Part shown: in pieces, positions 1 through 3,000 of the stretch
Layout of the letters: every line of letters begins with the position of its first letter
Position numbering within the stretch: the stretch's first letter is position 1
From: a virus
Lineage: Duplodnaviria; Heunggongvirae; Uroviricota; Caudoviricetes
Length of the DNA stretch: 4,161 bases
IMG/VR virus record: IMGVR_UViG_2700989507_000017
Span: 1-4,161 of that record
Reading direction: 5' to 3' (one strand)
Program-made: the position numbers

Positions 1-3000
1 CCTTCAGCATGTACAGCGCAGCCAGGTCATCATTTGTGTCCTTCTGCACGCGCTGTATCTGCTGAATGGTGGCGCTCTGGTCTTCCAGCGTTTTACTGAC
101 CGTCTGTGTGATTTCATTGCGGGTTTCTGTGATGGTGGTCTGCATTTCCGCCATCTCGTCCTTCAGCTGACTGTTGTCAATCTCTGCCCACAGCGCCTCT
201 GCCAGATGCGTTTTTCCTATCTTTTCCCGGAAAAGTTCCAGATAGCCCGCAGCATCATTGCTCGCCCGTCCACTGGCTTCCACAAAAGCAGATTTACCCA
301 CCAGGTTGACGCTGCGCACATAAAACCAGAAATCCTTTCCGGGCTTAATGTGCGGACCGGAGACACTCCACTGACTGCCGGTCCCCAGATAACGGGCAGA
401 GGTTTCCACCTGTGCGGCGTCTGCAATTTTTGCCTCCGAAAACCAGAACTCAAACTGCACCGTCGGGTCATAAATGGTCAGTTTCGGGACTGCCGTTATC
501 TGAAAATACCCCGGCGTCAGTTCAACACCGGCAGGCGCTGCCGGTGCGTTAATCCGGAAGGTGGTGGTGGCCGGTTCGCCCTGCTGGCCATAACTGTTAA
601 TTGCCCTGACTGTCAGGGTGTATTCCCCGAGCGGCAGACCACTGAAACGATGCTCTGTATCCGCAGTGATGGCGGTGGTCACCAGACGGCTGTCTTCTCC
701 GCTTCCGCTGGTCAGGCGCAGACTGAAGCGCACACCCTTCACCACCCGCGGCGTGTCCCATTTCGCCTGTGCCAGATACTGACCGTCAGCCGCGCTCACC
801 TCCACCGTCAGGTGCTGCACTGCCGGTGGAATAACGCTGTTCAGGGTGCCTGACTGCGGCTCAAAGCTGGCCCCGTTATCCACGATGGCTTCTTTTTCCG
901 GTACGTGCTGCACCGCCGTGATGGCAAAGGTGCCGTCCGTGTTTTCCCGGATGGAGACACAGCGGAACAGGCGACGACGCAGTGACGGCAGGGAGAGTCC
1001 CCATACACCGTATGTCTCCACACCATCAGGCAGGGTGCTGACCTGTATCCGGTCCGGCGCGGGGTGTGCAGTGATGGCCACGCTCACCGGCTTACCGCTG
1101 CCGTTAATCAGGTTCACCGTGGCGGCACCTGTCTCCGGCAGGGTCACCTCACGGTCCAGTGTCAGGGTGCGGCTGGCGGCATCGATGGACAGGATACGTC
1201 CGCCGGTCATGGTCCCGGCATAGTCGTTATCACAGATTTCAATAATGTCACCGGGTGTGTGACGCAGCCCCTGTGACCCGAGCGTGAAATCCACCGTCTG
1301 CGTTTCCAGCAGTCCGGTCTTTATCACCCACAGCCCGGCACGGTGGGCCTGACCGCGACTGGTGCAACCGAACGCATCCATCTTCAGCAGGTTGCGCCCG
1401 TAGCGCAGTATGGCTTCCGGGTCTTCCACCAGTTCCGTGGAGGTCTGCCAGCCGTTCTGCGGGTCGGTGTAATTCACCTCCACCGCCGTGTGGCGGTCCT
1501 TCAGGGCGCTGAAGCTGTAGCGAAACCCCACGCCGTTATCATCCACCACCACATCGCAGTTGGTGTACGGCCACACCACATCCGACGGGCGGTCCTGAAC
1601 GAACGTCAGCGTCTGGCCGTTCCATACCGGCATACAGCGCATCGCCGAGCAGAAATCACTGAGAACGTCCCACGCCTTACGCTGTTGTGACAGGTACGCA
1701 TTAAAGGTCATCCGCGGCTCTGTCCCTCCGAAGCCGTCCGGGACCGTCTGGTCGCAGTACTGCCCGATGGCATACAGCGCCCATTTGTCCACGTCCGCGG
1801 CCCCCAGGCGTTTCCCCATCCCGTAGCGCGGGTGAGTCAGCATGTCCCACAGACACCAGGCCGGATTGTTGCTGTATGCCGGTTTCAGACTGCCGTCCCA
1901 GATACCGCTGTACGTGCGTTTTTCCGGGTCATAGTTTGACGGCACCTGGATGATGCGACCGCGGATATGGTAGTTCACCGTCATCTGCTGGCCGCCGAAC
2001 TGCTCCGCATCCACCTGCAGCCCCACAATGGCCGTGTTCGGGTAGCACTGTTTCACATCGATGATTTCGGTGTATGACGACCACAGCGTTCTGTTCTGCA
2101 GCTGGTCCGTGGTGCTGTCCGCCGTCTCCCGGACCATCCGGATGTTAAAGGGACGGGGAGGCAGATTCTCCAGAATCACCGACGCCAGGTACTGTGAGGT
2201 GGTCTTGCCGTTAATGGTGACATCCTTTTCCGTCACCCAGTTACCGTTACGCTGTAACTGAATCAGCAGGCGGACGGATGTCGGGTTTCGGTCACCCTTT
2301 GACGTGGTCTGCACCAGTGACTGCACCCCGAAGGTGACCCGCAGGCGGTCAATGTTCGCGGATGTAATGGTGCGCGTCACCGGCTTTGCCTTCGTCACTT
2401 CCACGCCCAGTGCGGTTTCCGCCCCGGAGGACTCAAAGCCTTCCGGCGGTGTCTGCTCCTGCTCCCCGGCGCGCCAGACCACGGTCACACCATGTATCAC
2501 AGGATTACCGTCCGTGTCCGTCAGCGGGGTTTTGTTCACCAGGATACTCTGCAACCCCTTCACCGGACCTTCAATCGGCCCTTCACCAATGGCGTCAATC
2601 ACGCTCATCATCTGCGTGGACTTAAGATTGTCCTTTGCCTCTACCGGCGTGTGCGCCTTGCCGCCACCTTTACCCACTCTGTCCCCCTCTCCTGTCTGAT
2701 GTCTGAATCTGTTTATGCCCCAAAAACGACAGGCACCCCGGAGGGTGCCTGTGTCATGACGGAATAAAATTTCTGAATTTCTTCACATTTTCTGTACGCC
2801 CCCGTGGCAGATATCATTCCCGGGCGTTACAGTTTTTTCGGGCCAATAAAAACAAAACTCCCTGTGGTTAATCTTCATTTTCTGTTCCCGCAGCCTCCAT
2901 ACACTGCGGGATTTTTTTATTCTTTTTACCTCTGCCGCCCGATAACCACCACCTTCCCGTCACCGCCTTCATCACGGGTGCTGATGTCCTGGGAGATTCG

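Follow-up and report, generated by a model that had tools for sequence, protein, structure and literature searches.

The closest described relatives of the element considered here are two sets of Hfq-dependent small RNAs (sRNAs) encoded by prophages of Escherichia coli. PasB (E2348CN_0006) derives from prophage PP6 of the enteropathogenic E. coli (EPEC) strain O127:H6 E2348/69, in which Northern blotting and sequencing of ligated interacting RNAs (RIL-seq) revealed an 83-nt transcript (1466343→1466261) with 37 RIL-seq partners; its level changes by a log2 fold change of −6.8 in a Δhfq strain, indicating Hfq dependence (Pearl Mizrahi et al. 2021, PMC8550237). EcOnc22, EcOnc23 and EcOnc24 of enterohaemorrhagic E. 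coli (EHEC) O157:H7 Sakai were detected as Hfq-bound peaks by UV cross-linking and analysis of cDNA (CRAC), migrate at ~85 nt on Northern blots and are destabilised in Δhfq cells (Tree et al. 2014, PMC4104026, Table S2). The locus under study is the spacer between the tail genes I and J in a stretch of 4,161 nucleotides (positions 1 to 4,161 of the IMG/VR virus record IMGVR_UViG_2700989507_000017, Caudoviricetes), hereafter called the window. Judged by its sequence, the plus-strand half of this spacer (2678..2925, exactly 248 bp) is a divergent allele of the published, but unannotated, PasB/EcOnc22–24 family. The spacer as a whole very probably consists of two modules: an sRNA gene of this family on the plus strand, and a sense-strand hairpin or terminator preceding J on the minus strand.

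PasB is located between gpI (ending at 1466255) and gpJ (starting at 1466496) of the E2348/69 prophage and runs antisense to both. Its Northern probe, AATCCCGCAGTGATCGCGGAGCT, spans the E2348/69 terminator hairpin, being the reverse complement of CCCGCAG…CTGCGGGATT. The peaks of EcOnc22, EcOnc23 and EcOnc24 correspond to offsets 150–212 of identical 240-bp I–J spacers in the Sakai prophages Sp15, Sp14 and Sp11, likewise antisense to I and J. This assignment requires a +128 correction from NC_002695.1 to NC_002695.2, which was verified on HnrS (1.78 Mb) and on the StxS terminator (2.93 Mb). With the raw version-1 coordinates the EcOnc22 peak lies on the J-proximal hairpin, a placement that was rejected, as the +128 offset moves the peak onto the PasB body. 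PasB of EPEC and EcOnc22–24 of EHEC appear to belong to the same family, a link that is stated neither in the PasB and EcOnc papers nor in the 2026 survey of Pas RNAs by Zhu, Shabalina and Storz; in Table S6 the PasB entry carries no note, and EcOnc names are absent from the 2026 preprint (bioRxiv 10.64898/2026.05.13.724894).

The coordinates in Table S2 of Tree et al. (2014) are displaced by about +128 relative to the current RefSeq sequence, at least from 1.78 Mb onward, and uncorrected peaks are misassigned. The mapping of coordinates was checked internally on features of the HnrS sequence. As located by its coordinates in Sakai Sp9 (2149-2214 of locus L001), HnrS contains CUUCUACCCAAUCAGUAC and CUUCU, the latter being the complement of the published hha ribosome-binding site AGAAG. 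The former resembles what we take to be the complement of the mazF 3' end and would presumably be consistent with the pairing published for the final 15 nt of mazF.

For the window allele, family membership was assessed with 55 distinct versions of the module, gathered from viral contigs and annotated records (alignment A3), and with a covariance model built from 47 alleles of non-window type, the window-type alleles being left out. The model matches the window at 2821–2918 on the plus strand with 67.6 bits (E 1.6e-11), covering model positions 1–99 of 99, and this match marks the PasB/EcOnc22-family sRNA gene (2821..2918, plus strand), antisense to the tail operon. The window can be aligned along the full spacer to the E2348/69 PasB and the Sakai EcOnc22 loci; over the RNA, the identity is ~70% to PasB and ~65% to EcOnc22, and the Sakai CRAC peaks fall on the segment matching the window sRNA. 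Position and strand also agree with the family, namely the I–J spacer of a lambdoid prophage in antisense orientation, as in E2348/69 and the three Sakai prophages. The known alleles form at least 12 clusters, one of which is that of the window. Expression, size and Hfq dependence have been demonstrated for the homologues by others, and the window allele is presumably expressed as well.

The preliminary description of this DNA had interpreted the extra ~190 bp of the spacer as a possibly acquired module for a small non-coding RNA on either strand. This hypothesis is right for the plus strand, as borne out by the PasB/EcOnc22 homology and the 67.6-bit match, and was not sustained for the minus strand. 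The Rfam scan proposed there, run with cmscan on the entire window at E up to 1, yielded no credible match: its sole match was the terminator-driven anti-hemB, with 18.5 bits against a gathering score of 49.5. Likewise, no RefSeq annotation is found beneath the 2997 copies of the spacer in complete E. coli genomes. The sRNA gene itself is already known from the literature, though absent from Rfam and from RefSeq annotation.

The predicted RNA ends in a U7 tract, with a length of about 80–95 nt. Its intrinsic terminator (2886..2918, plus strand) consists of the arms UCCCGCAG (2886–2893) and CUGCGGGA (2904–2911), a 10-nt loop and the U7 tract at 2912–2918. The fold has a free energy of −13.9 kcal/mol (z −4.81), equalled by none of 200 shuffles. 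This CCCGCAG…CTGCGGGA-U7 element ends 7 nt from the I stop codon and is common to PasB, EcOnc22–24 and the window; the family pattern, to which the window conforms, is CCCGCAG, a loop and CUGCGGGA followed by U6–8. The stem is invariant in 47/47 alleles while the loops are highly variable, and a single compensatory G-C to A-U pair occurs in the stem among these alleles. A simple terminator scan of the spacer, likewise proposed in the preliminary description, called the minus-strand hairpin discussed below, but missed the plus-strand hairpin because its 10-nt loop exceeds the 8-nt limit of the scan.

The body of the sRNA is predicted to be unstructured. It contains an (ARN)4 block, AAUAAAAACAAA (2845..2856, plus strand), which is a candidate motif for the distal face of Hfq: at least three consecutive A-R-N triplets occupy this position in 52 of the 55 alleles, despite differing sequences, and four A-R-N triplets appear in only 4/2000 shuffles of the window RNA. 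The U-run is also conserved across alleles. Two further segments on the plus strand, AACUCC (2856–2861) and the core UUAAUCUUC (2868..2876), the latter unpaired in the fold, correspond to near-invariant columns of A3. Together they constitute a putative seed region; for PasB, the seed was placed just 5' of the terminator (Zhu et al. 2026, bioRxiv 10.64898/2026.05.13.724894). With its U7 tail, (ARN)4 block and unstructured body, the window RNA carries the sequence features of Hfq-binding sRNAs, and the predicted layout is the architecture of an Hfq-dependent base-pairing sRNA.

The conserved core is also the place where a protein-coding alternative has to be considered. A 31-codon open reading frame (ORF) on the minus strand (2878..2783, MKINHREF…), read in the direction of I and J, could encode a small protein; phage PhiR12_5 has an annotated hypothetical protein of 32 aa at the equivalent site, and the start region of the ORF, ATGAAGATTAAC, is conserved in several alleles. 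In the commonest alleles, however, the ATG is replaced by ACG (…CTTCGT… on the plus strand) or deleted, and frame, length (22, 31 or >45 codons) and sequence beyond codon 4 are wholly different among alleles. The conserved bases of the ORF coincide with the core UUAAUCUUC of the sRNA on the opposite strand. A small protein is a scarcely credible explanation for the spacer.

Across the at least 12 allele clusters, the −10 signatures, the ARN block, the core and the terminator stem are kept, while other positions diverge to 50–70% identity. This pattern bears on the suggestion that the spacer is the non-functional footprint of a mobile element, with hairpins devoid of any current role. The spacer is AT-rich and inserted relative to lambda, some contigs carry tandem copies of the module, and insertion sequence (IS) elements are found nearby, all of which would suit such a remnant. 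Yet the homologues are expressed and Hfq-bound, and conservation of −10 positions, ARN block, core and stem, with variable loops and spacers, is unlike neutral decay, making a mere remnant highly improbable.

Upstream of the sRNA, conserved hexamers in A3 mark a putative promoter region with two overlapping candidates (2804..2833, plus strand). The first has the −10 hexamer TATCAT (2812–2817), which reads TATAAT, AATAAT or TATCAT across alleles; in the corresponding A3 columns 42–47 the A at position 2 is invariant and the T at position 6 is present in at least 90% of the alleles. The second combines GTGGCA (2804–2809) with TACAGT (2828–2833) over an 18-bp spacer, and the TAnnnT pattern of A3 columns 58–63 has its T and A invariant. 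Transcription from the TATCAT −10 hexamer would begin at about 2824, a start favoured by the near-consensus promoter of the E2348/69 allele (TTCACA-16-TATAAT, 11/12 match) and by the U-run inside the Sakai CRAC peaks. A start at about 2840 is favoured by the annotated 5' end of the 83-nt PasB and by both Northern sizes. The 2840-type 5' end could result from a second promoter or from processing.

Further upstream, the block TCTGA-N6-TCACA (2772..2787, plus strand) matches 9/10 positions of the CRP half-sites and is the sole match in the window at up to one mismatch, with a chance expectation of 0.18. Taken as a single sequence, this match is not above chance, being present in 33/200 shuffles. 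Every allele keeps both half-sites unchanged, and this holds for 11 loci that were retrieved by BLAST and not by the pattern. The block is centred at −60.5 if transcription starts at about 2840 and at −44.5 if it starts at about 2824; the class I CRP reference is TGTGA-N6-TCACA centred near −61.5 (or −71.5, −82.5). The block may represent a CRP site or an UP/−35-like element. PasB is more abundant in overnight static lysogeny broth (LB) than in exponential cultures in Dulbecco's modified Eagle medium (DMEM), whereas Spf shows the reverse. Spf is repressed by CRP. This growth pattern agrees with CRP control, which we put forward as a hypothesis, and equally with stationary-phase control.

The spacer stands out from its surroundings as the preliminary description had noted. 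A lambda gap of about 60 bp had been given there, and 60 bp was measured for the I–J gap of lambda, compared with the 248 bp found here. The greater AT-richness was also confirmed: the GC content is 0.46 for the spacer and 0.41 for its core (2753–2885), versus 0.594 for J and 0.608 for I, and even the lowest-GC coding segment of 248 bp (0.504) lies above the spacer. The two hairpins with U-tracts face outward as described, and both are strong, with no shuffle as stable for either. On the minus strand, the hairpin ACAGGCACCC-UCCG-GGGUGCCUGU is followed by CG and U5 (2722..2752); the stem occupies 2752–2729 with a UCCG loop, the U5 tract lies at 2726–2722, and the whole is situated just upstream of the J ribosome-binding site. 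It folds with −23.1 kcal/mol (z −5.15; 0/200 shuffles equal) and was called by the terminator scan. The window-type stem shows a compensatory C-G to U-A change in related loci, with U·G intermediates of the sense RNA in 9 loci versus a C·A mismatch in 2. The most likely reading of this hairpin is a sense-strand terminator or stabiliser preceding J.

A hairpin at the same place is known from lambda. Like that of the window, the I–J hairpin of lambda is GC-rich, followed by a U-rich stretch, encoded on the tail-gene strand and positioned just before the J ribosome-binding site; unlike it, the lambda sequence is non-homologous and occupies a 60-bp spacer devoid of an sRNA module. In many prophages, non-homologous hairpin modules replace the minus-strand hairpin, while the PasB promoter and gene are retained. 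As it is swapped in many loci while the PasB promoter and gene stay, the hairpin constitutes a separate module. Locus L006 (425-610), 37 similar loci and L039 carry a longer, unrelated segment in place of the J-proximal hairpin module, resulting in an L006-type spacer of 342 bp. The replacing segment contains a symmetric hairpin, CCCCGGTATC-AGCA-GATACCGGGG, between A-rich and T-rich runs and has the look of a bidirectional terminator.

These replacements bear on the idea of a sense/antisense pair, also raised in the preliminary description, in which a second small RNA on the minus strand would start from a promoter in the core and end at the 2752–2722 terminator. This terminator is strong and conserved, with compensatory changes, and nowhere is the spacer better conserved than in the ~40 nt upstream of it on the same strand. 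In the L006-type loci, however, the conserved block of ~40 nt stays with PasB when the hairpin module is swapped and is therefore part of the PasB promoter region, which accounts for the conservation beside the hairpin. Moreover, the promoter scan found no −10/−35 pair on the minus strand, the Sakai Hfq-CRAC table shows no minus-strand peak in this spacer, the available portion of the EPEC RIL-seq tables holds no intergenic region (IGR) entry for the minus strand, no transcript has been reported for the minus-strand terminator, and the lambda hairpin at this site occurs without any sRNA module. A second, minus-strand RNA is hence very unlikely, and the pairing idea was abandoned in favour of one sRNA gene next to a separate hairpin.

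The following picture of the two modules is proposed. Module 1 (about 2763–2925) would be a self-contained sRNA gene bounded by the I stop codon and the J-proximal hairpin, with plus-strand transcription from its own promoter. By homology, its RNA would be made in the lysogen, stabilised by Hfq and act in trans on mRNAs of the host and of its islands. Module 2 (2722–2752, minus strand) probably halts RNA polymerase that is not modified by Q, or stabilises the upstream mRNA end, and would be read through in Q-antiterminated late transcription. The sRNA might instead act mainly in cis, by pairing with the late I–J transcript on induction and thereby altering its processing or the expression of J, or the late mRNA might serve as a sponge. 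The gene is always antisense and always found at this single position of the tail operon, and its complementarity to the late transcript is perfect by construction. The duplex, though, would stop short of the J ribosome-binding site by about 140 nt, PasB has its 37 partners in trans, and trans-acting sRNAs typically depend strongly on Hfq, as this family does. A mainly cis-acting role is accordingly unlikely, and action in trans is the preferred reading for module 1.

Several observations weigh against this two-module interpretation. Expression is known from the E2348/69 and Sakai alleles, through Northern blots, RNA-seq and CRAC, and would extend to the window allele by homology; the targets of the family members are candidates from RIL-seq partner lists. 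The consensus promoter scan called no promoter in the window and the −35 element of its allele is poor, in line with the preliminary description, which could not find a convincing sigma-70 promoter by eye. The 5' end is ambiguous between about 2824 and about 2840, and structural covariation is minimal, consisting of the single compensatory pair. For module 2, the role proposed for the sense hairpin is presumptive, and the equivalent hairpin of lambda is not called a terminator by the simple scan. Finally, the host prophage is defective, K being interrupted by an IS element.

The spacer is present in 786 of 5426 complete E. coli genomes, in 2997 copies with a median of 4 per genome, and in 147 phage records, most of them Stx-converting. 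Two sRNA modules occur in tandem in the I–J region of several contigs (L013 9819-10147, L068 4022-4349, L088 7423-7621 and L133 48-400, and also L134 and L135, at about 227 and 445). The tandem modules are about 179–220 bp apart, each with its own TCTGA-N6-TCACA block and terminator, and one of the copies belongs to a strongly divergent allele whose terminator reads CUCCCG…CGGGAG. In one of the viral contigs L012-L131, an IS629-like element sits inside the PasB promoter (…TTTTCACAAACTGAACCGCCCCGGGAATCCTGGAGAC…), of the same IS type as at K in the window.

The Pas survey of Zhu, Shabalina and Storz covered bacterial genomes with a BLAST word size of 28 (bioRxiv 10.64898/2026.05.13.724894). Window-type alleles would escape this survey because the longest exact word that they share with PasB is well under 28 nt; more generally, surveys with long BLAST words undercount the family, since alleles such as that of the window are only ~70% identical to the query. 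A blank in both RefSeq and Rfam concerns roughly one complete E. coli genome in seven, usually with several copies of the spacer and mostly in strains positive for Shiga toxin and the enterocyte effacement locus (LEE). As a speculative extension, which we regard as rather doubtful, one sRNA gene at the I–J position may exist as a hypervariable series of alleles; the at least 12 found here have promoter, ARN block, core and terminator in common and differ elsewhere in the RNA. With a median of 4 spacer copies per genome, several PasB-type RNAs of different target ranges would coexist in poly-lysogenic EHEC, cAMP-CRP may switch the series on at glucose exhaustion through the CRP-like site kept by all alleles, and pairing in cis with the late tail transcript might be added on induction.

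The tail genes flanking the spacer are of lambdoid type according to Pfam and lie on the minus strand of the window. J starts at 2677 with GTG, runs past the left end of the window and contains Pfam GpJ domains; direct reading and translation of the sequence place its start codon (2677–2675) and the Shine-Dalgarno region GGAGAGGGGGA within 2675..2692. I (3606..2926) matches Pfam Lambda_tail_I, and K (3896..3504) matches Pfam NlpC/P60. K lacks its N-terminal part, as an IS3-family element interrupts it at about 3897–3900, and the prophage is considered defective for this reason. The element (region 3897-4161) opens at about 3900 with TGAACCGCCCCGGG, and its orfA starts at 3953; from the OrfA sequence, we take it to be IS629/IS1203-like. 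The K::IS junction was not found in one piece among the 5426 complete E. coli genomes.

What this analysis adds is that PasB and EcOnc22–24 appear to be equivalent, that the allelic series is broad, that an ARN block and a CRP-like site are conserved, and that the spacer can be read as modular. The feature is genuine but largely accounted for by the published sRNA family, and it leaves the basic picture of prophage-borne Hfq sRNAs unchanged. The ARN block, the core and the CRP-like site provide handles on the targets and the regulation of a multicopy, virulence-associated sRNA. Other sRNAs of EHEC prophages, AgvB/AsxR and HnrS (EcOnc01/02 and EcOnc10–12), resemble it in being short, Hfq-dependent, multicopy and prophage-borne at fixed 'moron' positions, and in combining a conserved 3' part with variable 5' ends; they differ from the spacer sRNA in locus and sequence. 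Both were rejected as identities of the window element: AgvB/AsxR are located downstream of PR' and their Rfam models, RF02702 and RF02703, have no match in the window, while HnrS fits the multicopy pattern, but differs in sequence and has its locus between Rz and the terminase genes. EcOnc22–24 share position and strand with the window sRNA, and the J-proximal half of their spacer is nearly identical to that of the window; the RNAs themselves are more divergent, and their function is listed as unknown. PasB likewise resides in the I–J spacer on the antisense strand, with its CCCGCAG/CUGCGGGA-U7 stem a few nucleotides from the I stop codon, and has in common with the window allele the AACUCC…(U/G)AUCUUC core, the ARN block and the upstream TCTGA-N6-TCACA. 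It is distinguished by its promoter hexamers (−35 TTCACA and −10 TATAAT, versus TTCTGT and TATCAT in the window allele), by the 5' third of the RNA and by the terminator loop.

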